From contig OY279575.1 in the NCBI GenBank assembly GCA_958267355.1, forward strand, positions 41,726-105,725: DNA of 64,000 nt, read 5' to 3'. Each line of letters starts with the position of its first letter. The stretch's first letter is position 1. Below are positions 19,988 through 59,052 of this stretch, in pieces. Position numbers and translations under genes: made by a program. Under the pieces are notes generated by a model that searched no databases, was not told the DNA's origin, and saw only the letters and a program-made list of their open reading frames with translations. Origin of the DNA: an uncultured Alphaproteobacteria bacterium. GTDB lineage: Bacteria > Pseudomonadota > Alphaproteobacteria > JALCBB01.

Positions 19988-20000
19988 AACGCGAAAGAAT

Positions 20001-24011: not shown

Positions 24012-24018
24012 CAGGGTT

Positions 24019-24152: not shown

Positions 24153-24234
24153 CAAAACTTGGTTTGCGGATTAACTTTACTTAGCTGTATAGAATTATCT
24201 TACCTTGCGGTTTGCGGATTCACTTTACTTGGCT

Positions 24235-27833: not shown

Positions 27834-28036
27834 GGGGATTTGCTTTAGGGCTGGGTTCTTTAACGCGGCTTTAATCATGTCCTTGATGGACAAAAAAATG
27901 TTTTGCTAAAAGGGCAGGAAAAATATATTGCAACAGAAAGAAAAGAAAAATCTAATCGCGTAATTAACTTGCGTTAAGGGCTTGGAGCATAAAGCCAGTT
28001 GAATCGTGTGCTTTTGTTATGTTTTTAATTGCGGCT

Positions 28037-30575: not shown

Positions 30576-33500
30576 TTAGGCGGCGGTTTCCTTCGCCACT
30601 TCTTCCAACGCGGATTCTATCGCTTCTAAGGCAGGTTTTGCTCCTGCCGTGTTAGGCCCGCCCCCTTGGGCGAAATCATCGCGCCCGCCACCGCCTGTGC
30701 CGCCAAGGGCTTCACTCCCCCGCCGCACCAAGTCAATCGCCGAGATACGCGGAGTTAAGTCTTTGGTGACACTGACCACCAGCGAAGCCCTGCCTTCATT
30801 CACCGACACAATTGCCGCCACCCCTGACCCCAAATCCCCCTTAATCTTATCCGCCATCGGCCGCAACTCCTTCGCAGGAATATCCTTAACTTCTTTGGCT
30901 ATAAGATGAAAATCACCAATTGCCTTGCCCTTTGCATCTTTTTCTGCACATGCATGGTTTAATTCAGAAAGGAATTGTTTACGAAATTCGTCACTAGGAT
31001 TCATTGAAATTGCTTTTGCAAAATCTGAAATAGCAAGATCATACTCACCTTTTTTTCGATAGACTCCACCGCGCAAAGAGTAAGCGTGCGGCTCTTCACT
31101 ATTTATAGCGATAGCCTTGTTAAAATCTTCAATAGCACGATCATATTTACCTTCCACTGAATACATAGCCCCGCGATATATATAAGGCAACAGATGGGTG
31201 TCGTTTAATGAAATTACCATACCAAAGTCCTTAATAGCGTGTTCAAAATCTCTCTTTTGCATATAGGAATTACCACGAGCAAAATAAAACGAAAGTTCTT
31301 CTCCTTTTAAGGAAATTGCCTTATCAAAATCTTCAATGGCACGATCGTGTTTGTCCTTTTCTTGATACAAAGAGCCCCTATCAAAGTAAAATTGTGGATT
31401 ATCGCTTTCCAGTGAAATTGCTTTACTATAATCTGCAATAGCAGAATCATATTCGCCTTTTTCGTAATATGCCTGCCCCCGCTCATAGTACGTTCCAGAC
31501 CCCTTATCGCCAAGCTGAATCGCCTTATTATAATTTGCTATGGCTTCATCTATCTCCCCCTGCTCTTTATAAATCGCACCCCGTTTGGAATACAGATGGG
31601 GATTTTCTGCATCCAATGAAATTGCTCTGTCCAGATACGGAATAGCATATTCAGGAAAGCCCCAATCAATTTGATCATCCGCTACGCTACTAACTTCCGC
31701 AACCAAGTCGCGACGGGCTTTTTCCAAGTCACGTTTTAGAGCCTTGTTTTCTTCGGTTAGAGCCATAGCACGAGCAGTTATTTCTTCACGCGAAGTAGTG
31801 AATATATCTGCAACTTCGGTAACGCGACTTTCCTGTTCGCGTAAGTAGTATATGGCGGCTTGGTCAGCCACAGCGGTGATGCGGCGGATACCTGCCGCGA
31901 GTGACTCTTCTTTGATGATGTGCATAAGGCCTATATCGCCCGTGCGGCGGACATGGGTACCGCCACAAAGTTCGGTTGAGAAATAGCCCGCAGGTTTTGC
32001 CCTGTCTGTGTTACCCATTGAGACGACTCGCACTTCGTCTCCGTATTTTTCGCCGAACAGGGCTAGTGCGCCCGCGCGTTCTACGGCTTCTTCGGGTTGC
32101 ATCAGACGAGTCTGCACTTCGCGATTGGCACGGATATTCGCATTCACTTCGTCTTCTATGGCTTCCAACTGCTCTTTGCCAACAGGCTTCGGATGTGAAA
32201 AGTCAAAGCGCAATCTATCTTCGGCGACAAGTGAGCCCTGCTGGGTTACATGGTCTCCCAAGACGCGGCGTAAAGCTTCGTGGAGCAAATGTGTCGCCGA
32301 GTGGTGACTCCGCAAACGCGCCCGCCGCTCGCCGTTAACCTGCATTTCTAAAGTATCACCTTCACGCAAACTGCCCGATACGATTTCGGCTTTGTGTAGG
32401 TGCAAACCCGCTCCGCGTTTTTGCGTGTCGGTGATTGTCAGGGTTAAGTCTGAACCCATCGCCGTGCCTTTGGCTGTGCCTGTATCGCCTTCTTGTCCGC
32501 CCGACTCGGCGTAAAACGGAGTCTGATTACACAAAAACTCGCACGACTCTCCCGCCTTGGCTTGGTCTAGCGGCTCGCCATCGCGCAGAAGCTTTGTCAC
32601 CACCGACTCCGCCCGCTCAGTTTCGTAGCCCAAAAACTCGCTTGCCCCCAACTGCTCAGAAAGCTCTAGCCAAATCGCCGAAGTGGCTTCTTCTCCCGAG
32701 CCACCCCAAGCGGCTCGCCCTGCCGCACGCTGGGCTTCCATTGCCGCGTCAAAGCCCGCCGTATCAACTGTTCGGTTTTGTCCGCGTAGAATATCTTGCG
32801 TCAGGTCAAGCGGAAAACCATAGGTGTCATACAAGCGAAACGCCGCTTCACCCGACAGCAACTCACCTTCACCCAACTTGTCGGTTTCACCTTCCAGCAC
32901 CTTCAAGCCACGAGCCAGCGTTTCACCAAAACGCGACTCTTCGTTTTGTAAAGTGTCAGTAATCAGTGCTTCCGCTCGCCCCAGCTCGCCGTACGCTTCA
33001 CCCATTTCGGCAATCAAAGTCGGCACCAAGCGGTAAAGCAACGGCTCTTCAGTACCCAACAGGCGGATATGCCGCATCGCCCGCCGCAAAATACGCCGCA
33101 GCACATAACCCCTTCCCTCGTTGGAAGGCAAGACTCCTTCGGCAATCAAGAACGCCGAAGCCCGCAGGTGGTCAGAAATAACGCGGTGCGAAACCCCGCC
33201 ATTGTCGGTGGCAGTGGTTTCAACACCGCTCAAGTCCGCTACCTTGTTGATGAGCGGCGTGAAAAGATCAGAGTCAAAGTTATCGTGACTGCCCTGCAAA
33301 AGTGCCGAAATACGCTCTAAGCCAATGCCCGTGTCAATGCAAGGCTTGGGTAAGGGATTTTGTCCGCTCGCGTCGCGTTCGTACTGCATGAAGACAAGAT
33401 TCCAAATCTCAACAAATCTGTCTCCGCCTTCATCGGAAGCCCCGGGTGGTCCGCCTGTGAATTCGGCTCCGTAATCGTAGAAGATTTCAGCGCACGGACC

Positions 33501-34019
33501 ACACGGGCCCGTATCTCCCATCGCCCAGAAGTTGTCGTCGGTGGCAATGCGGATAATCTTAGAGTCAGCAAAGCCCGTGACTTTTTTCCAGATCTTAAAG
33601 GCTTCATCATCGTCAGCATAGACCGACACCAAAAGCCGCTCGGAATCTACGCCCCACTCCTTAGTGATTAAATCCCACGCCAGCGGAATTGCCAGCTCCT
33701 TGAAGTAATCGCCAAACGAGAAGTTACCCATCATCTCAAAAAAAGTATGATGGCGCGTGGTGTAACCCACATTTTCTAAGTCGTTGTGCTTGCCGCCAGC
33801 CCGCAGACACTTCTGCACAGTGACCGCCCGCGGATGCGGCGGCTTTTCCAGCCCCGTGAAGATGTTTTTGAACTGCACCATCCCCGCCGAGGTGAAAAGC
33901 AGAGACGGATCATTACGCGGCACCAAAGACGACGAGGGCAAAACCGCGTGGTCGTGGCGGGCGAAGTAGTCCGTGAAATGACGGCGGATTTCTTTAGCCG
34001 TGGCGTGGGTGGCAGTCAT
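30576..34019 (-). CDS. alaS: Alanine--tRNA ligase carrying an internal array of ~7 TPR units
   Basis: Likely start is ATG at 34019 ([19 protein letters not shown]); the track ORF starts at 34076. Catalytic, editing (HSATHLLH) and C-Ala ([13 protein letters not shown]) domains are present. The TPR block maps to about 30930-31690. Confidence 0.9.
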
Positions 34020-34169
34020 AGCGGAAGCAGGGTGATTCTGCGGCTTGGCGACAGGAGCAAAACCTTGCAGAATCATACAGACAAACCTGCCCGCCGACTA
34101 GCCCCGCCTGAGTCTGTGGGCTTTGCCTATCCTTGGCTATCCTTGGCGAGTCTTGCTGTTTAAGTAGCC

Positions 34170-35759: not shown

Positions 35760-36000
35760 TTTCCACAAGACAGGCAGAACACCCCCTACAGGACAAGCCC
35801 TGCGGGGCAAGCCGCGTATCCCCCGTCTTCGTCTCAAAAATGGGCAGTGGCTCAATTAGCCCCCCCCATTGAAATTATGGGGCGTGGCGGTTTGGCTCAA
35901 TTAGCCCTTCATTGAAACTATGGGGCGTGGCGGTTGGAGGAAGTAATAACGCTTGGCACGAATGCCGCACCGCAAGGTGCCCGCAAGGCGGACGCAAGGT
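35760..36000. repeat. GC-hairpin module tract, inverted relative of parts of 11400-11860, with an internal 44-bp tandem duplication
   Basis: 35893-35975 is the reverse complement of 11455-11537 (ggctcaattag...ggggcgtggcggttggaggaag...cacgaatgccgcaccgcaaggtgcccgc). ggctcaattagcc..attgaaaYtatggggcgtggcggtt occurs twice in tandem. Confidence 0.8.
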
Positions 36001-36001: not shown

Positions 36002-36931
36002 CTAGGGGGCTTGGGATTTGGGTTTTGGGGGGTAGAGTTTTGGGTTAGGGATATTACCTCCGTCTACATAGATGGAGCTTGGTTCTTTCTTAGGCTTGTC
36101 GGGTTTCTTTTCGTAGGGGTTGCTCCAATCCATGCCGGCGTAGCGGTCTTCGGCTTCTACACGCAGCGCAATCTTCTTCTCGTGTGAAGAACTATTATCT
36201 ATCAAACGGCGGGTAGAACGGTAGTCTTCGGTCTCGCTGTACTCTTTGATATGTTCGTCAGGGGATAGATACGCCTGAGCTCGGTCGATTAGCTCTGCCA
36301 TAGTCGCGTCATCAACGATTTTCTTTCCCGCTACAACTTGTTCTACCAGCTCGCAGAACTGGGTCAGCTCGCGGATCATCTCGGTGCGGCGTATCGCTTC
36401 TTCTCGCCGCAGGTTTCGGCGGGGGGCTATGGTTTGTTTTTTATCAAAGGTTTCAGGCTCTACGAGCTTTCCGCGGGTGCGCATATTCTCTAAGGCTTCA
36501 GTTAGCCTGTTCATCGTCTCGGTCGTAATCTCTTGGTGGTGTTTGCGCTCTTGGTCGGTTAAACCTTCAGGCATAGGATTGAGCCGCAATAACTCTAGGT
36601 TAAACATTATGAGCTGGCGTTCATCGCGTCTTCGTTGGGCGTTAAAAGCCCTGCCTAAAGCCCGTTCCTTGGCGTTGGTTTCGTCTTCTTCCTGTATGGA
36701 GCGTTGGAGGGAAAGCAGGGCTTTAACCTCGTCTTCTAGCTTGTCGTTGAGCTGGGGCAGGAGTTGGGCAAGGTTAGCCCTGCGGACTTCAGCACTTTTG
36801 TCCGCCTGCCCTGCGTAGTGGTTGGCTAGGGATTCCGTCAGCAGTTCGGGGTCAAGGGCGGATAGGTATTGGCGCACTTCCTGCAGCTTGGCGGCTGTCG
36901 TTGGCTGGTCGGCTGGGCGAGTGCTGTGCAT
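36002..36931 (-). CDS. Hypothetical charged/coiled-coil protein
   Basis: 309-aa ORF with no recognisable motif. A C-run leader (ccccaaacccccaacc) lies just upstream of the ATG on the coding strand. Confidence 0.5.
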   Translation of the reverse strand: MHSTRPADQPTTAAKLQEVRQYLSALDPELLTESLANHYAGQADKSAEVRRANLAQLLPQLNDKLEDEVKALLSLQRSIQEEDETNAKERALGRAFNAQRRRDERQLIMFNLELLRLNPMPEGLTDQERKHHQEITTETMNRLTEALENMRTRGKLVEPETFDKKQTIAPRRNLRREEAIRRTEMIRELTQFCELVEQVVAGKKIVDDATMAELIDRAQAYLSPDEHIKEYSETEDYRSTRRLIDNSSSHEKKIALRVEAEDRYAGMDWSNPYEKKPDKPKKEPSSIYVDGGNIPNPKLYPPKPKSQAP

Positions 36932-37099
36932 GGGGTAATCCTTCGGTTGGGGGTTTGGGGGCTAATAGAGTTGCGAAATCTCCTATATAGGAAATGAGCC
37001 ATTTTCAGGCAGATTCAAATTTTTTACGGATTTTTGGGGCAAAAAAAGAGATAAATCGGGCGCAAATCTAGACTCACAGCCAAAAAATAAATTTAAAAA

Positions 37100-37897
37100 T
37101 AAATTTCCTGTGGCCTTCCCACCCATCCCCCCCAAGGTTTGCTTCGCGTCCTACGGACGCTCGCAACCCTTGACCCCCCTTTGCCCTGTGCCTGCCTACG
37201 GCAGACACAGCCCCTAGGGGGGTGTTAATTAGATAGTCCCCCTCTATATACAAAAAAAACAAAAAGAAAAAATGTAGAGAAATAAGGCCTGTTGCCTTCG
37301 CGCCCATAGGGGGGTGGCTAATTAATCAACCGTGTTCTTAAAAATAAAAAAATAAGATTAGTAATGTCTACGATCAATCAGCAAGCTTCGCCACGCGTGC
37401 CCGCTCGGCACTTCGTGCCTTCGCGCCCCTAGGGGGGTGAATTCCCTAATCAGCCCATATTTCTAAAAACTAAAAAAACATAAAGAAAGAAAATAAAAAA
37501 TCTTCGTAGGGTAAATTTTGAAACCTCTACCCACCCATCCCCCCCTAACTTTGCTTCGCAAAGTTAGACCCCCCTTTGCCCTCGCCACACTTCGTGTGGC
37601 TCGCCCCTAGGGGGGTGTTAATTAGATAGTCCCCTCTATATAAAAAAGAAAAACATAGGGAGAGGTAAAGAGAATAAAAGCAGAGAATAAAGACAGCAAA
37701 CCAAAGCGGGCGACTGCCCCCCTGTAAGGGGGGTAGGAGACAGCTTTGGCAGTTAGGGGGGAATATTCTCTACTTTTAAAAAAACGCCCCTGCGGGGCGT
37801 TCCCTCGCGCACTTCGTGCGCGCCCACCCCACCCCCCAAAATTTGCTACGCAAATTTTGACCCCCTCCGTCCCGAGGGGGTAATAGCTCTTGCATTT
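37100..37897. repeat. ~800-bp non-coding array of GC-hairpin modules separated by A-rich spacers
   Basis: cccacccatccccccc-[hairpin]-gaccccc modules at 37118, 37529 and 37823. Palindrome-containing box gcccctaggggggtg at 37211, 37303, 37425 and 37604. A ctaactgccaaagc-type element (reverse orientation) at 37701-37761. Confidence 0.85.
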
Positions 37898-39427
37898 CTA
37901 GGGGATTGTTGTTTTGTCCTCTGCTTTCAACGCGGCCTCCTGTTCTTTTATTTCTCGAAATAGTCTATACGCTCGGATGAGAGAATAAGCCAGAAAAGGA
38001 GACGCAATGAGAACTGTTAGAAGTGCTCCAACGACTGCTCCGATAAAAGCTTCATTAAAAAGCAACACAGAAAATCCGATAAATGCTCCCATAAGAGCCA
38101 TATAGATAATCCAATAGGGAGCTATAATTAGGGTTGCTGTGAGAGTGAAGCCAAGAGGTAATCTAAAGGCACTAGGAAAAGCCCCACGGAGGACTGTGCA
38201 GAAAATTCCTATAAGTGCTCCGACAAAAGACCCGAAAGGGATTCCGTGAAAAGCTTCGAGAAAAGAACCATTGAAGAGAGAGGCAATCAATGCGCCAATG
38301 AAAGCACCAATATAAATTCCAATGAAAGAACCAAAAATAAGTCCAAATACGTTCACTCCCATAATCTTGAGAAAATCAGAAGGAGCGAAAGGAAGAACCA
38401 TAATGGCTCCCGCAAGAGCTCCGATAGTGGCTCCGATTAAAGCTTCAAAAAGAACTTCCGAAAGAACTTCAAGAATAGCTCCAGAAACAGCAAAGATTAA
38501 CACTCCAAAAATAGCTCCAGAGAAAGCCCCAGAAGAAAGTCTAAGGAGAGCTTTATCATCAATGTCATAAATACTATAAGGTCTAAACATTTCAACAAGA
38601 AATCCTATCAAAGCCCCAAAGGGAGCTCCATAGAGAGCTACACGAAAAGCACCTTCAAGACCTCTATCAAGAGCATTCCGATCAAGTCCTAAAGGCAAAG
38701 CCGCATTGAGACTTAAAAAGAGAGCCCCAAAGATAGACCAAAAGATTGCCGAATTTATTATTCCCCTTAAATTCGTTCTATAAAGATAATCAGAGCTGTT
38801 GGCTTTGGTAACGATCCTTTCGATTGCCTCACCAAGAATTCCAAGAATGGCCCCTAGGAAAGCTCCAGTAAGAGTTGCTATTAAAATTCCGATAGGAGCT
38901 CCATTAAAGTTCGCAATAATTATTCCTGAGAGTGCACCGTAGAAAGCCGCTACGATAACTCCAAAAAAAAGATGTAAAAAAGGTTGCGGAAAAGCCTTTT
39001 TAGAAGGGCTCTTGAAAAAATAATCGAAAAGCCAGTAACAAAGCCATGCAGAAATCGCAATAAATATTCCTTTTATAGCTCCAGCAGACGCTCCGAAAAA
39101 AAGCGCAATGAGAATTCCAGAAACAGCCATAAAGATAGCCCCAATAGCTGACGCTGAAAAAATGAAACTAGTGAATGAAGGTTTTTTCTTAGAGGGGTCT
39201 TCGAACTCAATTTCAAAAGCAAAGACAATTCCTACAAAAACACCAAAAATTGCACCCAATGAAGCCCCTAGGGCATACAATCTACGATAATTTTCCCACG
39301 CCTTAAAAATTTCTGTAAAAATCTCTTCTACCCAGTTCGTAGCAAAAATTCCGATGAGCCAATTCGTGATGAAAATTCCAGTAAGAATCCCAGCAATAAT
39401 TCCTCGGAGGATTATCTTGAGGCGCAT
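37898..39427 (-). CDS. Polytopic membrane protein built of reiterated glycine-zipper (GxxxGxxxG) segments
   Basis: Likely start is ATG at 39427 (MRLKIILRGIIAGILTG). Many segments like GAFLGAILGILG, GAPFGALIGFL, GSFIGIYIGAFIGALI and GAFIGAVVGALL. AT-rich. The upstream part of the track ORF is translation of a G/C-run leader. Confidence 0.7.
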   Translation of the reverse strand: MRLKIILRGIIAGILTGIFITNWLIGIFATNWVEEIFTEIFKAWENYRRLYALGASLGAIFGVFVGIVFAFEIEFEDPSKKKPSFTSFIFSASAIGAIFMAVSGILIALFFGASAGAIKGIFIAISAWLCYWLFDYFFKSPSKKAFPQPFLHLFFGVIVAAFYGALSGIIIANFNGAPIGILIATLTGAFLGAILGILGEAIERIVTKANSSDYLYRTNLRGIINSAIFWSIFGALFLSLNAALPLGLDRNALDRGLEGAFRVALYGAPFGALIGFLVEMFRPYSIYDIDDKALLRLSSGAFSGAIFGVLIFAVSGAILEVLSEVLFEALIGATIGALAGAIMVLPFAPSDFLKIMGVNVFGLIFGSFIGIYIGAFIGALIASLFNGSFLEAFHGIPFGSFVGALIGIFCTVLRGAFPSAFRLPLGFTLTATLIIAPYWIIYMALMGAFIGFSVLLFNEAFIGAVVGALLTVLIASPFLAYSLIRAYRLFREIKEQEAALKAEDKTTIP

Positions 39428-39965: not shown

Positions 39966-41468
<1,503 letters not shown>

Positions 41469-41723
41469 GGGGTTGGGTATTCTGGGGTTTGGCTATGCTT
41501 GGGTCTTGACTGACTCGGGCTTGCTTGAGTTTTGATTGACTTGAGCTTTTAGCTTGAACTTTGGCACCTGACTTTAAAGAATTGCTGACTTTGTCTTACT
41601 TGAATGGCTTGGTGCTTTTTACGGAGCACTTGGGTCTTTTTTGTGAGACGAGCGAGGCATAAAAAACCTGCTCGACAGTTCGCTGTCCTCGTACCTTCTC
41701 CGTTGTGCCTACTCAAGACCCCC

Positions 41724-41753
41724 AAAAGCCGCCCCCCAAGGCGGCTTTTCTTT
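41724..41753 (+). terminator. Intrinsic terminator-like hairpin plus T-run downstream of 16S
   Basis: aaaagccgcc-ccccaa-ggcggcttttctttg. Nearly the same hairpin as the one after 5S. Confidence 0.6.
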
Positions 41754-41883
41754 GTCTCGTCGGGGGCAATTTGGCTCTACCCAGTCAAATTGCTGAAAAT
41801 TAGCCAATTTACGCTGAATTTCTGTGTGCAGCCCCTACATATGGGGGTTTAACATTAGAGTGTTAACAAATCAGAAGGGCAAA

Positions 41884-41962
41884 TAAGTAACATTTTTCCT
41901 CCTTTTTGTTACTTAATCTCTTGTAAGTAACATTTATGTTAGTTAAATTCATTTAAGTAACA
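41884..41962 (+). promoter_or_regulatory. Four copies of the 9-mer TAAGTAACA (three direct, one inverted) upstream of the Fic gene; putative operator array
   Basis: Direct copies at 41884-41892, 41925-41933 and 41954-41962. Inverted tgttactta at 41907-41915. Confidence 0.5.
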
Positions 41963-41991
41963 AAAACCACGAAATTCGTTAGTTAGCCAAA

Positions 41992-43176
41992 ATGGACAAA
42001 AAACACAAAAAACAAAGAATTGGGAATTATGTAAGGAGCTCTGCCTCTGACACGGTGAGCTATCTGGCTTACATTCCCAGCCCGCTCCCACCAGACCCGC
42101 CACTGGATATGGCAGATCTTGCTCCTCTTTTAGAGCGAGCCCATATCGCCATCGGGCGCTTGGACAGTATGATCGATCCACTATCAGACTTTTCTTCGGC
42201 TTTGCGCACATACTTTATCCGTAAAGAAGCTGTTTCATCCTCTCAAATTGAAGGCACGCAATCGACCCTCTCTGATGTATTGGTGTATGAAGCAGGTGAC
42301 AAAAAATTAAACACGCCTATTGAGGACGCTATAGAAACTTTACGCTATGTTTATGCTATGGAATATGGATTAAAACGCATAAAAGATATTCCCATATCGC
42401 TACGTTTGATTAGGGAAGTTCATAAAAAATTAATGACTGATACACGTGGTCAAAATAAGCAGCCTGGTGAATTTCGAAAAAGCCAAAACTGGATTGGCGG
42501 GTCAAAACCAAGTAATGCCGATTTTGTGCCGCCGCCACCGAACCATGTGATGGATGGGTTAGATAATCTAGAAAAATTCCTCAATGACGAAAGAACGGAT
42601 CTGCCTGTTTTAGTCAAGGCTGCGATCACGCATGTACAGTTTGAAATTATTCACCCATTTCTTGATGGAAACGGCCGTTTAGGCCGATTGCTTATTATTT
42701 TCATATTGTGTGCGGAAGATATTCTTAAGCAACCTGTTCTAGGTTTAAGTTCATATTTAAAAACCAACCATAAGGGTTATTACAATCATCTCCAATCTGT
42801 TCAGGAAAAGGGCGATTGGGAGGCGTGGATTGAATTTTTCCTAACAGGTGTCATTGAAACAGCTGAACAGGCAATAGAGACTATGCAGGCAATCCGAACA
42901 CTCTTTGCGGCAGATAATGATAAAATAAGCAAACGCGGAAGATCAGCAGCAAGCGTTTTTAAGATACATGCCCACTTGGAAAAATATCCAATGACTACGA
43001 CACGGAAAATAAAAGAAGACACAGGTCTGTCGTTGCCGACTGTCCTGCGCGGATTAGAAACTCTGAAAACTTTAGATATTGTTAAAGAACCTGAAGTCAA
43101 ATCGAGAAACAGGGTCTTCATTTATAAAAAATACCTTTCTCTTCTAAACGAAGGCACAGAGCCTTTGCCAAGGTAG
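41992..43176 (+). CDS. Fic family protein (AMPylase-type) with N-terminal inhibitory motif and C-terminal wHTH-like region
   Basis: HPFLDGNGRLGR Fic motif. SSQIEG matches the (S/T)xxxE(G/N) auto-inhibition helix. Confidence 0.85.
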   Translation: MDKKHKKQRIGNYVRSSASDTVSYLAYIPSPLPPDPPLDMADLAPLLERAHIAIGRLDSMIDPLSDFSSALRTYFIRKEAVSSSQIEGTQSTLSDVLVYEAGDKKLNTPIEDAIETLRYVYAMEYGLKRIKDIPISLRLIREVHKKLMTDTRGQNKQPGEFRKSQNWIGGSKPSNADFVPPPPNHVMDGLDNLEKFLNDERTDLPVLVKAAITHVQFEIIHPFLDGNGRLGRLLIIFILCAEDILKQPVLGLSSYLKTNHKGYYNHLQSVQEKGDWEAWIEFFLTGVIETAEQAIETMQAIRTLFAADNDKISKRGRSAASVFKIHAHLEKYPMTTTRKIKEDTGLSLPTVLRGLETLKTLDIVKEPEVKSRNRVFIYKKYLSLLNEGTEPLPR

Positions 43177-43309
43177 GAGGTGGGGCAGACAAAAGAAAAA
43201 ACCGACACTAGGTGATTTTTGCTATCGATGCGCCAAAATGAACCAAAATGAAAAAGCCCTCCCTTAAGACGATCGGCTTTTTATTTAGCCCCCCAACCCC
43301 CTCGAGCGA

Positions 43310-43482
43310 AGCCCGCGGGGGCGTTTTTTAAGAGTAGAGAATATTTACCCCCCCCTAACTGCCAAAGCTGTCTCCTGCCCCCCCGCGCAGATCGTCTTGC
43401 GTCACGCGGAGCGGATAGCAAGCGAGATGCGCAAAAGTGTTGCGCAAGCGACACGAAAAGGCGGGGCAGTCGCCACCTTTGG
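43310..43482 (+). repeat. ctaactgccaaagc-type hairpin element with an expanded loop, preceded by a terminator-like hairpin
   Basis: Reads gcccgcgggggcgtttttt, then agtagagaatatt..cccccctaactgccaaagctgtctcctgccccccc, then about 78 nt of nested hairpins, then ggggcagtcgccacctttgg. Confidence 0.8.
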
Positions 43483-43601
43483 GGCAAAGTATGGGGGTTA
43501 GGCAGGCGTGAATCGGCTTGATTTCCGCCATTAATTCTACCCTTGCGGGAGGTACATATTTCGTCTTTAATTTAGAACCATTACTACTTTAGGGGGGATA
43601 T

Positions 43602-45947
43602 ATGAAGCAGTTTCTTCTAATTCTATCGGTAACGTTGTCGCTGTTGCTGTCAGCGCAGATGGTTTCTGCTCAAACCGATGAAGAGCCCAAAGAAATTACG
43701 GATGCAGAAGTTGAAGAGGCCAAAGAGTCGTTTAAAGATTTTTTGAAGTCTCTGGAGGATTCCCTGAAAGAAGCTGCTAAGGAAATTGAAGACTCCGAAG
43801 AATTTCAAGAGCTCAAAAAATCTGTCAAGGAGGTAGAAGATACAGAAGAATTTCAAGAGTTGAAAGAAGCCATAAAAAATTATGAAGACGAAGATGATTG
43901 GGACAAGATCAAAGAAGCGGCAAAAAAGCTTGAAGACTCCGACAAGGTGGAGGAGATCAAGGCGCAAGCAAAAGATGTTGAAGATTCTGAAGAGGTTCAA
44001 GGGCTGAAGGAAACGGTTAAGGGTATTGATGACAGCGAGCAGTTTCAAAAACTCAAGCGGGCGGTAAAAAATATTGAAAACTCGCAGGAGCTCCAAGAGT
44101 TAAAAGAAATTGCAAAAAATCTTGAAGACTCCGAGGCATTTCAAGAGCTCAAGGAAGTTGTCAAAAATCTTGAAGACATTGAAGATTTGCCAAGGCTCCA
44201 GCAGGCGATCAAAGATCTTGAAGACGCAGAAGAATTAAAGCAGCTGAAGGCTGCAGCAAAAGATCTCGATGACTCGGCGGAAGTCCAGACGCTGAAAGCG
44301 ACCATCGTTGAGACCGCTAACGAGCTCGGAGACCTTGAAGATCCCTTGCGTGCCACCACCGCCACAACGCAAAGCGCGGCGCAGACTGCAGAATCAACAA
44401 CACAAGAGGCAACAAACCAAGAGGCACAAGAATTTGCGAACCAAGATTCCGATGAGAACACAGAGGAAGACATTTTAGAATTTCTTGATGAAATTGAGTA
44501 CGAAGCAATTTCTAACTTTGTGACTCGTGGAGAATACGAAGCACTCACGACGAAGCAGCGGAAAAAGCTTACACAACTTGCGATTCAAGCGAAATTCTGG
44601 GGTGATAATCCTGAAAAGCTTGCGAAAATTCGTGGGGAATTTTCGGAAATCATAAACTCTGTTGCGGGTGCGCAAGCGGTGGCAGATTCCTCTGAGAAGC
44701 TGACGCTTGAAGATATAGAGGGGCTTTTTTCTCCTGGGGAATTTGAGACTCTTCCAGAGGCGGCGCAGGACAAATTTTTCAATCTTACATTCCGATTGGG
44801 ACTTGTTGAAGAGGACTCTGAAGCGTATCAAAAGATTTTGCGTGAGTTGATAGCTCTTGCGGAGTCTCCTTATGATGCGGCGACTACGGAGATTACAGAT
44901 GAAGACAGGCAAGAATTTGCTGAAGACTTTTTGGGTGCCTTGGGCAGAGAGTTGGGTAGGGGGCTTGGAGAATATTTAGCTTCTCCTGAAGTTCAAGAGA
45001 GTATATTGGCGACTGACGATACCGCTACGGATGATGCGGGCGACACTTCGGAGTCTTCTACGCCTCTTCCTTATACGGAGGGGTATGATTTTTATCCTGA
45101 AGAAGAGGAGTCATCTGACAGTTTAAATTTCTTTTGGGGGTTGATTGCTTTTGTAATAATTTATTTTGTTCCTTCAATTTTTGCGTCTCTGCGGCGGTCG
45201 CGTGCGAGCACGCCGCTTCTTATTGCTAATATTCTTGCGGGCTGGACGATTATTGGTTGGGTGATTTGTCTGTTCTGGGCAGTTTTCTCTGGTCGCGCCC
45301 CGAAAAATGAAACCAAGAATGAAACCAAAAATGAAGCCAAGAATGAAACAAAGGACGAGAAACTTGCACAAAGCGAAAGCAACATAAATCAGATCAACGA
45401 AAAACCTGAAGACAAGAAAGATCGCGGCGAGAAGAGTCAAGATGGGTCTGTTAAAACTGCACGCAAGAAGGGTGCGGTGGCGGAGTTTCTGATTACACTT
45501 CTTATTACTTTGGCTTTATTTTTGGTTGTGTATTCTATATTTTTGCTTGATATTCCAGGATCGATGGGGGATTATTTGTTGAATTATGTGTTGTATGGCG
45601 TGATGTATTTTACGCCGACATTTTTTGCGTATTATAACAAGACAAAAACATGTGGCTGGTTGTTTGTTGTTAACGCTCTTGCGGGTTGGACAATTATTGG
45701 TTGGTTTGTCTGTTTTGCTTGGGCGTTTTTCTCCCATCGCGAGGTGGGAGGCGAGCAAAACGCAGTGGGTAGCCAAGAGCAGCAACACGGATTTCTTTAT
45801 AGCTGGTTGTTTCTTCAAGACCCTGAAGAAATGAAGGAATGGAAAAAAGCGGTGAAAGAATTCATAGATGCTAAAAATGAGGCTATGAATGATGGCGGCG
45901 GAAATGGTAATGGCGGTGGGGGCGGCAATGGCGGCGGTGGCGGTTAA
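43602..45947 (+). CDS. Secreted/membrane protein: signal peptide, ~12 acidic 16-aa repeats, two superinfection-immunity-like TM hairpins, KNET repeats and a Gly/Asn tail
   Basis: MKQFLLILSVTLSLLLSAQMVSAQ. Repeat unit EDSEEFQELKxxVKxx. YFVPSIFASLRR..LAGWTIIGWVICLFWAVF and YFTPTFFAYYNK..LAGWTIIGWFVCFAWAFF. Confidence 0.7.
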   Translation: MKQFLLILSVTLSLLLSAQMVSAQTDEEPKEITDAEVEEAKESFKDFLKSLEDSLKEAAKEIEDSEEFQELKKSVKEVEDTEEFQELKEAIKNYEDEDDWDKIKEAAKKLEDSDKVEEIKAQAKDVEDSEEVQGLKETVKGIDDSEQFQKLKRAVKNIENSQELQELKEIAKNLEDSEAFQELKEVVKNLEDIEDLPRLQQAIKDLEDAEELKQLKAAAKDLDDSAEVQTLKATIVETANELGDLEDPLRATTATTQSAAQTAESTTQEATNQEAQEFANQDSDENTEEDILEFLDEIEYEAISNFVTRGEYEALTTKQRKKLTQLAIQAKFWGDNPEKLAKIRGEFSEIINSVAGAQAVADSSEKLTLEDIEGLFSPGEFETLPEAAQDKFFNLTFRLGLVEEDSEAYQKILRELIALAESPYDAATTEITDEDRQEFAEDFLGALGRELGRGLGEYLASPEVQESILATDDTATDDAGDTSESSTPLPYTEGYDFYPEEEESSDSLNFFWGLIAFVIIYFVPSIFASLRRSRASTPLLIANILAGWTIIGWVICLFWAVFSGRAPKNETKNETKNEAKNETKDEKLAQSESNINQINEKPEDKKDRGEKSQDGSVKTARKKGAVAEFLITLLITLALFLVVYSIFLLDIPGSMGDYLLNYVLYGVMYFTPTFFAYYNKTKTCGWLFVVNALAGWTIIGWFVCFAWAFFSHREVGGEQNAVGSQEQQHGFLYSWLFLQDPEEMKEWKKAVKEFIDAKNEAMNDGGGNGNGGGGGNGGGGG

Positions 45948-46000
45948 TAGAGAAAATGGGTATCTTTCCGCACGGGCGGTTTCTCACGATAAGGAGGGCG

Positions 46001-46930
46001 ATGAAAATGGGGCGTAGAAAATTTTTAAAGTCTTTAAAACGCTCCTTGAAGAAGGCGGCGAAGGAGGTAGAAGACTCGGACGAATTCCAAAAGCTCAAGA
46101 AGTCCGCGAAAGACTTGGAAGACTCAGACGAGTTTCAAGAGTTTAAAGAGACCGCGAAGAATGTTAAGTCCTCCGAGGATTTGAAAAAGCTCAAGCAGGC
46201 GGGCAAAAGGCTTGAAGACTCCGAGGCGGCAGAAGAGTTCAAGCAATCCGCCAAGAATGTAGAAGACTCAGAAGAATTCCAAAACCTAAAAGAAATGGTC
46301 AAAAACATTGAAGACACCCAAGAGTTCAAAGAGCTCAAAAAGACTGCCAAAAATCTACAATATCTCTACGATTTGCAGAGGCTTCAGGCGACGATCAAAG
46401 ATTTTGAAAACACGGCTGAAGTGCGGGGGCTTAGAAGGGCGGTCAAGGATATTAAAGCCACCAAAGAATTCAAGGAGCTTAAAGAAATCGCCAGAAATCT
46501 TAAAAACCTTGACGACTTGCGACGGCTTCGTGATGCTGTCAAAAAGCTTGAAGACTCTGCGGCGGTGCAGAAGCTTAAAGTTGCTGCCAAAAAGGTTGAA
46601 GATTCTGCAGAAGTGCAAAAGCTGAAGCAGGTTGCCAGTCGGGTTGAGGACAGCCAAGAGTTTCAAAAGTTTAAAGCGATTGCCAAAAACCTTGAAAGCT
46701 TTGACGATCTGGAAAAATTACAAGCGGCGGCGAAAACTCTTGAGGACTCTGCTGAGGTCCAGGGGCTTAAGCAGGTGGCGAAAGATATAGAAGACTCCAG
46801 CGAAGTGCAAGAGCTGAAGCAAGCCGCTAAAGATCTTGAAGACTCTGCTGAAGTGCAAGAAATTAAACAGGCTGCGAAAAGCCTTGAAGACTCTGCTGAG
46901 GTGCGAGAGTTGAAAGAAAGAGTGCAGTGA
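46001..46930 (+). CDS. Protein made almost entirely of ~18 copies of the same 16-aa acidic repeat
   Basis: AAGGAGG lies 5 nt upstream of ATG at 46001 (track ORF starts 45956). Repeats read EDSDEFQKLKKSAKDL / EDSAEVQELKQAAKDL and similar. Confidence 0.7.
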   Translation: MKMGRRKFLKSLKRSLKKAAKEVEDSDEFQKLKKSAKDLEDSDEFQEFKETAKNVKSSEDLKKLKQAGKRLEDSEAAEEFKQSAKNVEDSEEFQNLKEMVKNIEDTQEFKELKKTAKNLQYLYDLQRLQATIKDFENTAEVRGLRRAVKDIKATKEFKELKEIARNLKNLDDLRRLRDAVKKLEDSAAVQKLKVAAKKVEDSAEVQKLKQVASRVEDSQEFQKFKAIAKNLESFDDLEKLQAAAKTLEDSAEVQGLKQVAKDIEDSSEVQELKQAAKDLEDSAEVQEIKQAAKSLEDSAEVRELKERVQ

Positions 46931-47032
46931 GAGACGAAAAGTAGTAAAGGCTAGTGTTCGCGAAATTTTTGGTATGTGATATGCTGTATGGCTGTGCTAT
47001 CTTGTGCGGGCACTTTTAGAGAGGATTTTGAG

Positions 47033-47455
47033 ATGAAAGGCACTTTATTGACTTTGCTGTTTTCGGCGTTCCTGCTGGCGGGAGTGGCGGTGCTTACTAC
47101 CTTTGGTTTTACGGCGGCTGAGCCTGTGATGGCGCACGAGGTGCATTTCTCCACTGAAGGAGACGGGCACGGCGGCAGTTGGTCGGTTCGTGTTGATGAG
47201 GGGAAGTGGTCGGGCCACTGGCCGCGCAATAAACCTGTGGTTGCGGTCTTGGTGATGTTTTTTGTGCTGGCGGTCTTTTCGTCGGTGTATTTTTTGCCGA
47301 CTCTGCTGGCTTTCGGACGCAGAATGCACTACCGCGTGCCGCTGTTTGTGGTCAATATCTTTTTCGGCTGGACATTCATCGGCTGGGTCTTCTGCATGGC
47401 CTGGGCATTCTGGCCTGATAGGGACGAGCGCAACGAGAAAGCAGAACAAGGATAA
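47033..47455 (+). CDS. Small membrane protein with a superinfection-immunity-like TM hairpin
   Basis: MKGTLLTLLFSAFLLAGVAVL...YFLPTLLAFGRRMHYRVPLFVVNIFFGWTFIGWVFCMAWAFW. Confidence 0.65.
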   Translation: MKGTLLTLLFSAFLLAGVAVLTTFGFTAAEPVMAHEVHFSTEGDGHGGSWSVRVDEGKWSGHWPRNKPVVAVLVMFFVLAVFSSVYFLPTLLAFGRRMHYRVPLFVVNIFFGWTFIGWVFCMAWAFWPDRDERNEKAEQG

Positions 47456-47563
47456 GTCTTTTCTGCTTTGTAGGCTTTGTAGGGTTATAGATATTTTTCC
47501 TGCAGCGGCGTTTTTTGTATTATACTACCTCTACGAGAAGAGTAGCGGCGGAGCGCGGGACAC

Positions 47564-48004
47564 ATGAAAAAAATGAAAAAAATTGCTATAAAGAGTTCTA
47601 TCTTTGCCTTTTTCCTAACGCTATTGGTGGATCTAATTATCTTTGTTGTTGCGCTTGATGTCCCAAGTAGAATCATGCATTTCTATTCTATTGATGTTAT
47701 AGATTATTCTCTCGAGGTGGCAGATCTAGAAGATTTTGTGCCTCCTGAGCCTGAACCGTATTTTCTGTCTTATCTTAAGAGGGGATTTGTTATTTGCCTT
47801 TTGGTTTTTCTTTACTTTCAGCCGACATTTTTTGCCTATATAAATAAGGTGCGCTCGCGCAGGCGGATACTGCTTGCGAATGTATTTTTGGGCTGGACGA
47901 TTGTCGGCTGGTTTGTCTGTTTTTTCTGGGCTTTTTCGCTCAACCGCGATAGCCGCCCTGACCGCGACAGCGACCAAGCCGCCCCTTCCCCCTCAACTTC
48001 GTAA
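47564..48004 (+). CDS. Small membrane protein with a superinfection-immunity-like TM hairpin
   Basis: YFQPTFFAYINKVRSRRRILLANVFLGWTIVGWFVCFFWAF. Confidence 0.65.
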   Translation: MKKMKKIAIKSSIFAFFLTLLVDLIIFVVALDVPSRIMHFYSIDVIDYSLEVADLEDFVPPEPEPYFLSYLKRGFVICLLVFLYFQPTFFAYINKVRSRRRILLANVFLGWTIVGWFVCFFWAFSLNRDSRPDRDSDQAAPSPSTS

Positions 48005-48076
48005 GGTAGCGGCCACCCTTCACGCCCGCGGTGTTTTTCCTGTATGCTGGGCTTTCTGTGCCTACGCACAAAGGAG

Positions 48077-48153
48077 GGGCCTGTAGCTCAGCTGGTTAGA
48101 GCGCACGCTTGATAAGCGTGAGGTCGGAGGTTCAAGTCCTCCCGGGCCCACCA
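48077..48153 (+). tRNA. tRNA-Ile (anticodon GAU)
   Basis: gggcctgtagctcagctggttagagcgcacgcttGATaagcgtgaggtcggaggttcaagtcctcccgggcccacca. Folds as a cloverleaf by hand, with encoded CCA. Confidence 0.95.
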
Positions 48154-48178
48154 CCGCCACGAGAAGGCAAGTAAAAGG

Positions 48179-50488
48179 TTAGTTAGCAGACTCGGTTGCT
48201 TGTTGGGCGGTTGAGACTTCGGCTTTGGGGCGGAAGGCTTGCCACATGAAGAGGGCGAAGGCGAAGACTCCCCAGGCGAAGACGACATCGCCTGGCACCC
48301 GCAGCCAGACCAGCGTTTCAATCAGCGGACTATGCAACAGCTCGGGCGAGCGGGCGGCTTGGTAGCCATCGCGGATGCTCACCCAAGTTTGAATCAGTCC
48401 TTGCGGAAGCAACGACAAGAAGGTCATCAAAAGCAAGCCGATGTTGAATGACCAGAAGGCTTGTTTGAGAAGGCCGTTGTTCCAGCGGCGCACATCGGTG
48501 AGTCCGCGCATGCAGTACAGGGTCAAGCCGAGTCCGAGCATGCCGTAGACACCGAACAAAGCGGCGTGTCCGTGGTTGGCGGTGGTGTTGAGTCCTTGCA
48601 TGTAGTACAGCGCAATCGGCGGATTAATCAAAAAGCCGAAGACGCCTGCGCCGAGAAAATTCCAGAACAGCACGGCGGCGAAGAACATAAACGGCCAGTA
48701 GTAGGTGTCTTCCCAGTCTAGGCCCGTTGTGTGCTTGCGCCGACTCCAGGCTTCAAAGCCGACGACGAGCAGGGGCACGACTTCTAGTGCTGAAAAAGTC
48801 GCCCCGACAGCAAGCACAGCTGTCGGAGTGCCTGTGAAGTACAAGTGGTGAAAGGTGCCAAGCACTCCGCCGAACAAGAAGATGATGGTGGCGAATAGCA
48901 CCATTACGGTCGCGACCGAAGCCCGCACCAATCCCATACGCACGAAGAGCAACGAGATGATCGCCGTGGCAAAAACTTCAAAGATGCCTTCTACCCAAAG
49001 GTGCACTACCCACCACCGCCAGTATTCGGCGAGGGCGATGTGGGTGTGTTGTCCGTAGAAAAGCCCTGCTCCGTAGAGCAGCCCGATGGCGATGGAAGAC
49101 ACCACCACCAAAAATATCAGCGAGCGGCCGACTTCGGGTTTGGTTAGGGCAGGCCACAAGCCACGCAAGACCAGTCCGAGCCACAAGAGCAAGCCGATAA
49201 ACAGGTAGATCTGCCAAAAACGCCCAAGGTCAATGTATTCGTAGCCTTGGTGTCCGAACCAATAGCTCGCGGTCAGAGACGAGAAAAGCCGATGCACCGC
49301 CGCCCATTCGCCGAAAAACGAACCCACAACAATAAGTAGCAAACTAAAGAACAGAAAGTTTACGCCGAACCGTTGAAACTTCGGCTCTTTGCCGCCGAGT
49401 AACGGCGCAACATACAAGCCACAGGCAAGCCACGCTGTTGCAATCCAAAAGACCGCCAGCTGCGTGTGCCAAGTGCGCGTCACAACATACGGAAAGTATT
49501 CAGCCAAAGGTAAGCCATAGACTCCTTGCCCTTCAACGCCGTAGTGGGCGGTGACAATGCCGCACAAGACCTGCAAGACGAACAAGGCGGCGACGATCCA
49601 AAAGAACTTGGCGGTCGCGCGCATAGACGCAGTCGGCACGACAGACGCGAGTCGGTCTTCTTTTGCGTAACCGTCTTCGGGTTCGCTGTCTTGCCGCCAG
49701 ATGTCAAACTGCTGGGCGTAGTACCAGACGATGGCTCCGATCCCTGCGAGCAGGAGCAAGATGGAAATCAGGCTCCACAACAAAGTCGGAGGAGTCGGCG
49801 TGTTATCAACCAAAGGTTCATGCGGCCAGTTGCTGGTGTAGGTGACTTCCTTGTCAGGACGGTTCGTCGTCGCCCCCCAAGCCGTCCAAAAATAAAACGC
49901 CGACAAGGCGCGGGCTTCGTCAGGCTCTAGATAGGCAAGAGCCGAAAAGGCATATTCTTCACGCAGGTGTTCGGCTTCTGCACTTCCGCCCGTATACAAG
50001 TCTAAGTAGTGCTGCTGAGTCTCGGCAATCGCTTGCGCACGGGCAACAGAAACCGTGATGGTCTTGGTCGCCGCATCGTATTCATTGCGGCGCATTTCTT
50101 TCGCCAGCCGCGCCCGATTGAGCGTATCGGTTTCTTCAGCCGAATTGCCAATACGAAACCTCTGGTTGTAAATGGCAAGCAACGCCGAAGCCTCGCGATG
50201 CAGCCAATCGGCAGACCAATCAGGAGCCAAATATCCGCCGTGCCCCCAAATTGAACCTTGTTGCATGCCGCCGATGGACTGCCAGACGGCTTGTCCGTGC
50301 TGAATATCTTCGCGTGTGTAGATGGTTTCGCCACTCTGCGCCCGCACAACCTCAGGTATAGGCGGAGCTTCACGGTAAATCTCCCGTCCGAGCAGCAGCA
50401 GCACGCTGAACATCACGACCATCCCGACTGCCAGGATGATCCACAAGCGGCGAATAGAAAAAGTGCTTTGATAGGATGCGGTACTCAT
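48179..50488 (-). CDS. norB: Quinol-dependent nitric oxide reductase, single-subunit qNOR type
   Basis: 769 aa: N-terminal TM plus periplasmic extension fused to a 12-TM heme-copper oxidase-like core with conserved His ligands (HLWVEG, HHLYF, HGHAALFG). Confidence 0.8.
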   Translation of the reverse strand: MSTASYQSTFSIRRLWIILAVGMVVMFSVLLLLGREIYREAPPIPEVVRAQSGETIYTREDIQHGQAVWQSIGGMQQGSIWGHGGYLAPDWSADWLHREASALLAIYNQRFRIGNSAEETDTLNRARLAKEMRRNEYDAATKTITVSVARAQAIAETQQHYLDLYTGGSAEAEHLREEYAFSALAYLEPDEARALSAFYFWTAWGATTNRPDKEVTYTSNWPHEPLVDNTPTPPTLLWSLISILLLLAGIGAIVWYYAQQFDIWRQDSEPEDGYAKEDRLASVVPTASMRATAKFFWIVAALFVLQVLCGIVTAHYGVEGQGVYGLPLAEYFPYVVTRTWHTQLAVFWIATAWLACGLYVAPLLGGKEPKFQRFGVNFLFFSLLLIVVGSFFGEWAAVHRLFSSLTASYWFGHQGYEYIDLGRFWQIYLFIGLLLWLGLVLRGLWPALTKPEVGRSLIFLVVVSSIAIGLLYGAGLFYGQHTHIALAEYWRWWVVHLWVEGIFEVFATAIISLLFVRMGLVRASVATVMVLFATIIFLFGGVLGTFHHLYFTGTPTAVLAVGATFSALEVVPLLVVGFEAWSRRKHTTGLDWEDTYYWPFMFFAAVLFWNFLGAGVFGFLINPPIALYYMQGLNTTANHGHAALFGVYGMLGLGLTLYCMRGLTDVRRWNNGLLKQAFWSFNIGLLLMTFLSLLPQGLIQTWVSIRDGYQAARSPELLHSPLIETLVWLRVPGDVVFAWGVFAFALFMWQAFRPKAEVSTAQQATESAN

Positions 50489-50728
50489 AGCTCCTCCTTG
50501 GGGCGTGTGCCCTGCTAAACTGAGTTTTGATGCATTCCCCCATAGTACAACCTCGCCCCACGAACCGCAAACCTGACTGCAAGCCCTACCTTTCTGCTAT
50601 CCTCGGCTGGGCGCACCTAGCCCGATGGTCACGGTGCGACCATTTTTGAGCGTTGCCGTGAGGGTTGGCGTGAGGGTTGTAAGTCCACCGCGTGGCTATA
50701 TGGGCTATTGTGTAGAAGGAGAGATTTC

Positions 50729-50804
50729 GGGGCCGTAGCTCAGCTGGGAGAGCGCCTGCTTTGCAAGCAGGAGGTCAGGGGTTCGAGCCCCCTCGGCTCC
50801 ACCA
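50729..50804 (+). tRNA. tRNA-Ala (anticodon UGC)
   Basis: ggggccgtagctcagctgggagagcgcctgctttGCAagcaggaggtcaggggttcgagccccctcggctccacca. G3:U70 pair present, with encoded CCA. Confidence 0.95.
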
Positions 50805-50881
50805 TTTCATCTTATTTAGAATCATGCTATACTATTGGTTGCATTTAGAAATCCACAAAATCGCCTAAAGCAAGGAGAAAC

Positions 50882-53749: not shown

Positions 53750-56499
<2,750 letters not shown>

Positions 56500-59043: not shown

Positions 59044-59052
59044 TCACTCTAC

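Follow-up and report, generated by a model that had tools for sequence, protein, structure and literature searches.

Hairpin repeats with a conserved C-run/G-run scaffold and a sequence-variable stem in an uncultured alphaproteobacterium and in unrelated bacteria

Repetitive extragenic palindromic (REP) sequences, together with bacterial interspersed mosaic elements (BIMEs) and REP doublets forming hairpins (REPINs), are short G+C-rich intergenic palindromes of Escherichia coli, Pseudomonas and Stenotrophomonas that are mobilized by REP-associated tyrosine transposases (RAYT/TnpA-REP). REP sequences are reported to form heterogeneous subfamilies in which stem changes are complementary, to carry self-complementary inserts of up to 27 bp in their loops and to occur as dimers with 20–100 bp spacers; they are often transcribed, and the CGTC REPs prevalent in Alphaproteobacteria have no dedicated transposase (PMC3733652). 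Here we describe hairpin repeats, designated A1, A2, B1, B2 and B3, in and just beyond a 64,000-nt window of contig OY279575.1 (positions 41,726–105,725; assembly GCA_958267355.1) from an uncultured alphaproteobacterium; coordinates below are window positions unless a locus is named. The repeats share a hairpin with C-run and G-run arms (H0), a variable hairpin with a GNA triloop (the slot hairpin) and a G-run. This architecture recurs in many unrelated bacteria, and the slot stem shows strong covariation.

Like REP, BIME and REPIN sequences, the repeats are short, G+C-rich and intergenic, occur as singletons, inverted doublets and linker mosaics, and show complementary stem changes, self-complementary loop inserts and strain-variable presence. 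Their short palindromes, H0 and the slot hairpin, recur in the window, in the loci of related strains and in metagenome loci. An earlier sequence-only reading of the window had not recognized the repeats as a known family (REP/BIME, ERIC, RPE or attC). A place outside the known repeat kinds is not borne out by their anatomy, which is of the REP/BIME/REPIN and RIME type (palindromes, inverted doublets, mosaic, intergenic, strain-variable). Curated RNA families, however, gave no match: at the Rfam gathering threshold the window contained only rRNA and tRNA, and no match was obtained in 20 metagenome loci. The best sub-threshold score in the region 36900–37950 was for HSUR (25.4 bits, cut-off 50, E 2.2), and the best by E-value were Whalefall-1 (16.1 bits, E 0.39) and Atu_C8 (20 bits, cut-off 50, E 0.45). 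No mention of the literal element sequence was found in the literature.

Unlike REP sequences, the conserved part is here the C-run/G-run hairpin with the G-run, the adjoining slot hairpin varies far more than stems do within a REP family, and no RAYT was found associated with the scaffold in the loci screened. The unpaired GTAG or CGTC tag at the palindrome end is absent; the slot is preceded by GGGGTC or GGTC and followed by G6, H0 is flanked by A and T, and GTAG occurs by chance only, inside some loops. Membership in the CGTC REPs (8–9 bp stems starting with A/T, 4–5 nt loops, CCA tail) was rejected, as the fit was loose for hairpin H1 of the window elements and absent for the GC-rich relatives described below.

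A high-copy Sinorhizobium/Rhizobium repeat present in 328 plasmid and chromid records, [CCTTCTCCCC-GCAA-GCGGGGAGAAGG]-T-[GGCC-GGCA-GGCC]-GGATGAGGGG, forms an inverted doublet and is presumably the Rhizobium-specific intergenic mosaic element (RIME). It has an alphaproteobacterial host and the same order of parts as the present scaffold: a C-rich/G-rich hairpin, one base, a short GC hairpin and GGATGAGGGG (compare GGGGGGGATGGGTGGG here). By this order, the repeats are intergenic mosaics of large palindromes in inverted arrangement, as RIMEs are. Integron attC sites are similar in that structure is kept while sequence varies, in folding as single-stranded DNA (ssDNA) and in lying next to exchangeable accessory genes. 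They differ in their R''/L''–L'/R' core sites, extrahelical-base pattern and integrase, none of which was found here. Each of the present elements combines several hairpins with G-runs, and cassettes do not regularly carry one copy each. No R/L core sites (GTTRRRY/RYYYAAC) are seen in the elements, whose cores are G and C runs. Hairpin repeats are also described from organelles, including yeast mitochondrial GC clusters, double-hairpin elements and the sponge mitochondrial RHE (PMC2800124). In these, too, the hairpin modules are small and GC-rich, spread into AT-rich intergenic DNA and can be inserted one within another, but they are organellar with family-specific sequences, and a C-run/G-run scaffold with a slot is not described among them.

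Anatomy of the elements

All elements, in the window and in the strain loci, lie between open reading frames (ORFs). A1 (minus strand, 37783–37890; DNA fold −35.4 kcal/mol, z −6.8) and A2 (plus strand, 61383–61495; −41.4 kcal/mol, z −6.0) share the blocks ctattaCCCCCTCgggacgGAGGGGGtc, ggggggtgggg[t/c]ggg and agggaac. Between these blocks the hairpins are unlike and all perfect: hairpin 1 is AAAATTTGC-gta in A1 and GCGTTGCC-gaa in A2, hairpin 2 is CGCGCAC-gaa and GCACTTGCC-gca, and hairpin 3 is CGCCCC-gca and GCGCCC-gcaa. The sequence-only reading had claimed that these stems differ at all three hairpins yet pair perfectly, and the sequence bears this out, with the cores identical. Its extension of the claim to B1 and B2 (minus strand; 37118–37250 and 37529–37642) stands in part. 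Different hairpins are indeed carried on shared cores, which are 100% identical over 32 nt, but each of the two B1 hairpins has one mismatch, and the first carries a further hairpin, GCGTCC-gta-GGACGC, nested in its loop.

Read on the minus strand from 37890 to 37783, A1 consists of ctattaCCCCCTC-gggacg-GAGGGGGtc, AAAATTTGC-gta-GCAAATTTT and GGGGGGTGGGGTGGG, followed by CGCGCAC-gaa-GTGCGCG, AGGGAAC, CGCCCC-gca-GGGGCG and TTTTTTT. H0 (ACCCCCTC-gggacg-GAGGGGGT) occupies 37860–37881, the slot hairpin H1 (CAAAATTTGC-gta-GCAAATTTTG) 37837–37859, the G-run core (GGGGGGTGGGGTGGG) 37823–37837, H2 (CGCGCAC-gaa-GTGCGCG) 37806–37822 and H3 (AACGCCCC-gca-GGGGCGTT) 37783–37801; the linker AGGGAAC follows H2 and a run of seven T follows H3. 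A convergent partner scaffold on the plus strand at 37715–37769, also identified by a regular-expression search, reads CCCCCC-tgtaa-GGGGGG, TAGGAGACAGCTTTGGCAGTTA (motif M4, exact in four window copies in a motif scan) and GGGGGG, and makes an inverted doublet of ~175 nt with A1. In A2, H0 lies at 61388–61409, the slot hairpin (CGCGTTGCC-gaa-GGCAACGCG) at 61410–61430, the core (GGGGGGTGGGGCGGG) at 61430–61444, H2 (CGCACTTGCC-gca-GGCAAGTGCG) at 61445–61467, followed by AGGGAAC, and H3 (GCGCCC-gcaa-GGGCGC) at 61475–61490, and a degenerate partner arm may be present on the minus strand at ~61523–61560.

Within the aligned B regions, B2 (37532–37617; fold z −6.6) has an H0 of CCCCCCT...AGGGGGG whose loop holds the nested hairpin GCCACAC-gaa-GTGTGGC, followed by the slot hairpin CTAACTTTGC-gaa-GCAAAGTTAG and the G-run GGGGGGGATGGGTGGG. 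B1 (37120–37224; fold z −6.1) has the same layout with other stems; its slot hairpin, AAGGGTTGC...GCAAACCTT, is the one with the nested hairpin in its loop. B3, a third B-type copy, lies just past the right end of the window.

On one strand, the loops of A1, A2, B1 and B2 all read C-GNA-G or C-GNRA-G; this G-rich strand, here termed 'sense', is the minus strand in A1, B1 and B2 and the plus strand in A2. GNA triloops closed by C-G are exceptionally stable in DNA, rather than RNA, and their preponderance would favour a role for the fold in ssDNA, with a transcript still possible. When the four elements were folded as ssDNA, z-scores against dinucleotide shuffles were −6.0 to −8.3, with 0 of 200 shuffles as good; A-type elements formed four separate hairpins and B-type elements a hairpin within a hairpin plus one more. 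Perfect hairpins, counted as stems of at least 5 bp closed by C-G around a GNA or GNRA loop, numbered 18 in the window compared with 3.8 in dinucleotide shuffles, and the long ones were clustered in a few intergenic regions. A2 was recovered on independent contigs of several strains, identical except for a G5/G6 run length, which rules out an assembly artefact. Chance likeness or artefact is thus refuted by the folding scores, the hairpin excess, the identical copies across independent contigs and strains and the presence of the family in unrelated metagenomes, and we found no point in its favour.

The elements share with intrinsic terminators GC hairpins of arbitrary stem and stable loops, and H3 of A1 with its T-run lies directly downstream of a gene. 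In contrast to terminators, a T-tract follows only one of more than 15 hairpins (A1 H3), and elements also lie upstream of, or antisense to, genes. A consensus terminator scan called none within A1, A2, B1 or B2 and one terminator-like site between B1 and B2 (37284–37298); it passed over A1 H3, probably because G.T pairs that lengthen the stem consume the T-run. A1 H3 and its T-run, directly after the stop codon, are probably the terminator of the upstream membrane-protein gene.

The wider family and slot covariation

Metagenomes were scanned with the pattern GGGGTC-N7-GCGNAGC-N7-GGGGGG, in which 14 stem positions are free. A total of 87 stretches matched, of which ~45 had the full architecture [A-C5-6-loop-G5-6-T]-C-[variable hairpin]-G6 followed by ATTT; these fell into at least eight sequence groups on contigs of 42–70% GC. 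The free stem positions were complementary at 5–7 of 7 in matches with the full context, compared with 0–3 of 7 in those without the upstream C/G hairpin. Inverted doublets of a filled and an empty arm were frequent among these elements, with examples at loci L101, L114 and L105 among others. One organism of 66–68% GC, found in several metagenomes, carried such doublets with a filled arm of G5-TC-21-nt hairpin-G6 and an empty arm of G6-CA-G6. Tandem arrays of elements with a 126-nt period were also found.

Across the seven free pairs of the slot helix in 28 distinct members, 89.3% of cells were paired compared with 65.6% in column shuffles (0 of 500 as high), and both-sided changes numbered 76 compared with 22. 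Pairing fell to 23–52% in slid registers, and one position of the helix held a conserved purine–purine mismatch, G.A or A.G. The suggestion from the sequence alone that structure rather than sequence is kept is therefore upheld in the wider family, where pairing holds through many both-sided changes in a stem that was mostly unconstrained in retrieval.

Covariance model R1, built from the 28 metagenome members, recovered all window copies. Scores were 60.7 bits for A1, 48.6 for B2, 46.3 for A2 and 35.5 for B1, and B3 and the M4 scaffolds at 37715–37769 (19.2 bits) and 59046–59134 (28.7 bits on the minus and 24.9 on the plus strand) were also detected. The A, B and M4 units therefore all belong to one family. 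In 1.41 Mb of other alphaproteobacterial DNA the best R1 score was 21.6 bits. The recA loci of relatives with 87 and 82% RecA identity lacked the conserved motifs of the element, gave only 12.3 bits with R1 (E 0.2) and showed no excess of GNA hairpins. A scan of the metagenomes for M4 and a scan of viral contigs for the element each gave 0 matches, and a BLAST search of plasmids with the GC-rich doublet gave none.

A look-alike was seen near recA in two Mesorhizobium species (L019 7605–7654 and L027 7682–7731), with CCCCCC-TTGC-GGGGG, a short hairpin with a GGCA loop and GGGGGG. At one of its stem pairs the two species differ in both bases, G-C against T-A, so that pairing is kept.

Origin of the stem differences

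The orthologous B3 copies of related strains indicate how stems can come to differ. The B3 hairpin is TAACTTTGC-GAA-GCAAAGTTA in L089 and L094 and AAAATTTGC-GTA-GCAAATTTT in L095, the latter being exactly the hairpin-1 allele of A1. Five of 21 alignment columns of the hairpin differ between strains (four substitutions and one indel), fully compensated, while the flanks diverge by 2.6–2.7%. As the L095 allele is also found in A1, at least some of the swapped stems represent cassette exchange between copies rather than stepwise compensatory evolution, and the B3 change is most simply read as gene conversion, a short-patch exchange between copies for which the identical G/C-run cores supplied the homology. 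The sequence-only reading had left the choice between selection and templated generation of structure; part of the swaps are instead exchanges of pre-existing alleles rather than compensation in situ. Nesting of modules was observed in three cases, namely in the H0 loop of B-type elements, in the H1 loop of B1 and, in L095, in the loop of GCCCGC-GCAA-GCGGGC, which holds an insert of ~70 nt. In L094 (16040–16400), four GNA/GNRA hairpins whose stems are unrelated form a block between a direct, partial duplicate of the 5S rRNA 5' region (~120 nt) and the intact 5S rRNA gene. The position of this block inside the duplication is a hint that junctions of repair or replication give rise to some of the hairpins.

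Taken with the architecture, we consider it probable that the repeats are a new family of REP/REPIN/RIME-like mosaic repeats, in which a conserved C-run/G-run scaffold carries a structurally constrained, sequence-free and exchangeable hairpin module. The unit comprises H0, one or two bases (usually TC), the slot hairpin and the G-run motif, the slot hairpin being closed by C-G around a GNA triloop with a stem free to vary as long as it pairs. Units stand singly or as inverted doublets and combine with other short modules (GNA/GNRA hairpins, the M4 motif and A/T-rich linkers) into mosaics. Copies may spread and reshuffle as DNA by short-patch recombination or gene conversion, with the G/C-run cores as homology, possibly with the involvement of a single-strand-specific transposase. 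Pairing would be retained because the folded hairpin is what matters, and individual modules could be co-opted, for example A1 H3 with its T-run as a terminator.

Several observations weigh against this interpretation. The scan pattern itself fixed three of the ten stem pairs as well as the G and A of the loop, one organism supplied many of the 28 sequences in the covariation set, and the counts of G.T (seven) and A.C (four) mismatches fit RNA or DNA, and either strand, alike. The data examined contain only ~10 scaffold copies of the host lineage, with no filled/empty polymorphism at orthologous sites in the sample and no target-site duplication found. No transposase was identified in a Pfam scan of the 30 largest window ORFs, and an HUH+Y motif screen found no Y1-like ORF in the window or in ~150 kb of the host lineage. 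A RAYT, which the sequence-only reading had suggested looking for elsewhere in the genome, was thus not found in the ~150 kb screened; the only one seen, a RAYT-like Y1 transposase gene in the 66–68% GC metagenome organism (L121 4883–5452), lies between inverted copies of another REP (TGTGGGAGCGGCGGAAGCCGCGATGAA) and gives no link to the scaffold. R1 gave no match at E ≤1 in a 40 kb S. meliloti stretch containing the rhizobial repeat, so that the kinship with RIME is one of architecture only.

Among the alternatives, the elements could be a structured-RNA family, either small RNAs (sRNAs) or cis-regulatory/3' untranslated region elements, with hairpins kept by selection on the transcript and G-runs acting as RNA motifs, possibly G-quadruplexes. 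REP transcription is common (PMC3733652). The strong covariation with several pair types per position, the G.U-compatible pairs on the G-rich strand (seven cells), the occurrence of GNRA tetraloops and the placement of A1, which is sense, directly follows a stop codon and ends in a hairpin with T7, are all consistent with such a role. We nevertheless regard it as unlikely, because orientation to genes is mixed (sense for A1, B1 and B2, antisense to the genes on both sides for A2, and within a divergent promoter region for B3), no promoter sequence upstream is common to A1 and A2, Rfam gave no match, and inverted doublets, tandem arrays and presence/absence between strains are observed. In addition, most loops are GNA triloops, whose notable stability is a property of DNA rather than of RNA. 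A mutational origin, in which replication or break repair generates hairpins, or perfects existing ones, through template switching or snap-back synthesis, appears equally unlikely. In such a process both arms would change in one event and the loops of existing hairpins would be preferred break points. It is documented to create and maintain hairpins (PMC8794818), and it would fit the near-uniform perfection of stems in the host lineage, the nesting in loops, the four unrelated hairpins inside the ~120 nt 5S duplication and the single base changes that make or unmake a perfect stem between strains. On the other hand, identical hairpin alleles recur in different copies, the slot always occupies the same position of a conserved scaffold that unrelated taxa share, and the stems of the GC-rich relatives are imperfect with a specific G.A/A.G mismatch retained, which a copying mechanism would erase.

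Two further possibilities invoke a system that acts on single strands. The scaffold may, at a somewhat lower probability than either of the foregoing, be a substrate of such a system in several phyla, the gap between G-runs being a slot that acquires and exchanges hairpin cassettes and marks the junctions of accessory or defence cassettes. This doubtful proposal draws on the empty (G6-CA-G6) and filled arms, the hairpins inside hairpin loops and the movement of alleles between copies; if true, the slot would be a hairpin-level analogue of integron attC/cassette dynamics in several bacterial phyla. It is less probable again, and in our view quite improbable, that the elements are attC-like recombination sites bounding exchangeable gene cassettes, where a structure-specific recombinase recognizes the folded single strand; such recognition would explain why structure and not sequence is kept. 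B3 and A2 flank a UvrD-like helicase cassette in the same orientation, L093 has other genes in its place with breakpoints by M4 and a C-run motif, and neighbouring genes are of accessory types (restriction–modification, Fic, GmrSD-type), as expected of such sites. The G-rich strand (minus for A1, B1 and B2; plus for A2 and B3) would also be the lagging-strand template if replication diverges near 38–40 kb, for which GC skew gives a weak indication. However, Pfam scans found no integrase or other recombinase in ~71 kb of the host genome or in the strain loci, A1, B1 and B2 lie inside a variable segment and not at its ends, the R/L core sites of attC were not seen, and no DnaA-box cluster fixes an origin.

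The repeats represent a natural case of structure kept and sequence free in non-coding DNA, and the fixed frame makes the variable module easy to align. The family could therefore help to separate three processes that are usually confounded: selection on the fold, hairpin-templated mutation and cassette exchange between copies. It could also reveal the enzyme that moves REP-like elements without a RAYT, such as the alphaproteobacterial CGTC REPs (PMC3733652). As the junctions vary between strains and the homopolymers vary in length, the elements matter for assembly, strain typing and the prediction of sRNAs and terminators.

Host genome, strain variation and further copies

The host is an uncultured, symbiont-like alphaproteobacterium with a chromosome of 1.86 Mb assembled from a HiFi metagenome and 50% GC. 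Its RecA is 63–77% identical (mostly 70–77%) to those of Rhodospirillales/Hyphomicrobiales-type Alphaproteobacteria, with no close cultured relative, and the window is ordinary bacterial chromosome with recA, alaS, uvrB, trkH, lipB, mgtE and rRNA genes. A chloroplast or organelle origin, suspected from the very long rRNA spacers, was ruled out by the ordinary bacterial genes in the spacers and the alphaproteobacterial RecA.

Several closely related strains co-occur in the sample of the host. The segment 35800–39519, which holds A1, B1 and B2, is replaced in a sister strain by ~480 nt of a different hairpin-rich mosaic (L082 9250–9736); around this 3.7 kb segment the sister strain is otherwise 94–99% identical. 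The segment encodes a 309-aa charged protein and a Gly-zipper-like membrane protein in addition to the repeat cluster, and the annotated 631-aa ORF probably starts at ~39427 (MRLK...). A2 is conserved in L094 and L095, being identical in three strains apart from the G5/G6 run; a fourth strain (L093) lacks both A2 and the UvrD-like helicase gene next to it. This gene (903 aa, L089 6440–9800; from 61352 to the window end at 64000 and beyond) forms a replaceable cassette with A2 and, on its far side, B3 at its ends in the same orientation; in the comparison with L093, which has other genes there, the breakpoints adjoin M4 and the C-run motif. A search of the helicase neighbourhood for defence systems gave weak GajB-like helicase matches only, and strain L095 has GmrSD near the cassette. 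Homopolymer lengths vary by strain (G5/G6, G7/G8, G8/G9 and a C-run one base longer) in spacers that are otherwise 98% identical, as seen between 43178–43601 and L082 5090–5530 and for A2 in L094 and L095, and between strains a single base decides whether one stem is perfect.

Further copies are present elsewhere in the window. Two partial B-like fragments (CCCATAGGGGGGTG... and CCCCTAGGGGGGTG...) with the hairpin GGCAC-gaa-GTGCC lie on the minus strand between B1 and B2 (37290–37455; motif and hairpin scans). The scaffolds at 59046–59134 overlap on both strands around TGCCCCCCC-ttac-AGGGGGGGCA, carry M4 in the slot and lie between convergent Eco47II-like and PhoX genes. A partial copy of the A1 3' part (hairpin, T-run and AAGAGTAGAGAATATT) is fused to an M4 scaffold on the plus strand at 43289–43385, where the sister strain is 98% identical except for G/C-run lengths and one stem base. 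Hairpin and motif scans identified a mosaic of the same module types at 11319–11900, with M4 at 11330–11350, the GNA/GNRA hairpins GTGCCC-gta, GCACC-gcaa (reverse complement) and GCGTCC-gtta, and two occurrences of the scaffold CAAAAG-[stem]-GCAA-[stem]-GTAAA with unlike stems. At least four different stems of this second scaffold (CAAAAG-stem-GCAA-stem-GTAAAAA) were seen in the lineage. An inverted copy (88%) of 11442–11545, including the hairpin GCACC-gcaa-GGTGC, lies at 35860–35990 and borders the strain-specific segment 35800–39519.

GC skew and gene orientation change sign at ~36–40 kb, suggesting divergent replication, and on either side of the switch the A and B elements have their G-rich strand in the presumed leading-strand sequence. 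An oriC in the element-rich spacer was ruled out by the lack of a DnaA-box cluster and the absence of the region from the sister strain. The rRNA genes are dispersed among protein genes (39966–56859) in the order 16S, a terminator-like hairpin (41727–41750), Fic, Imm_superinfect repeat proteins, tRNA-Ile, qNor (opposite strand), tRNA-Ala, an N6/N4 methylase, 23S and 5S. The adjacent genes for proteins with superinfection-immunity domains (43602–47455) contain long arrays of 48-nt (16-aa) repeats (EDSEEFQELK-like). The gene at 30576–34076 encodes an alanyl-tRNA synthetase with fused TPR repeats, 1166 aa in all; in more distant relatives the enzyme has 895–1038 aa with fewer TPR units or none. 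A separate intergenic repeat family (TCAAGGACATAATTAAAGCAGCTTTT and a 170-nt unit), unrelated to the hairpin scaffold, occurs at 7974–8342, 19994–20409, 24012–24181 and 27857–27893. A 93-nt direct repeat (81% identical; 3127–3219 and 4814–4906) is located at the starts of neighbouring minus-strand genes encoding ICEA-like and NuoF-like proteins.

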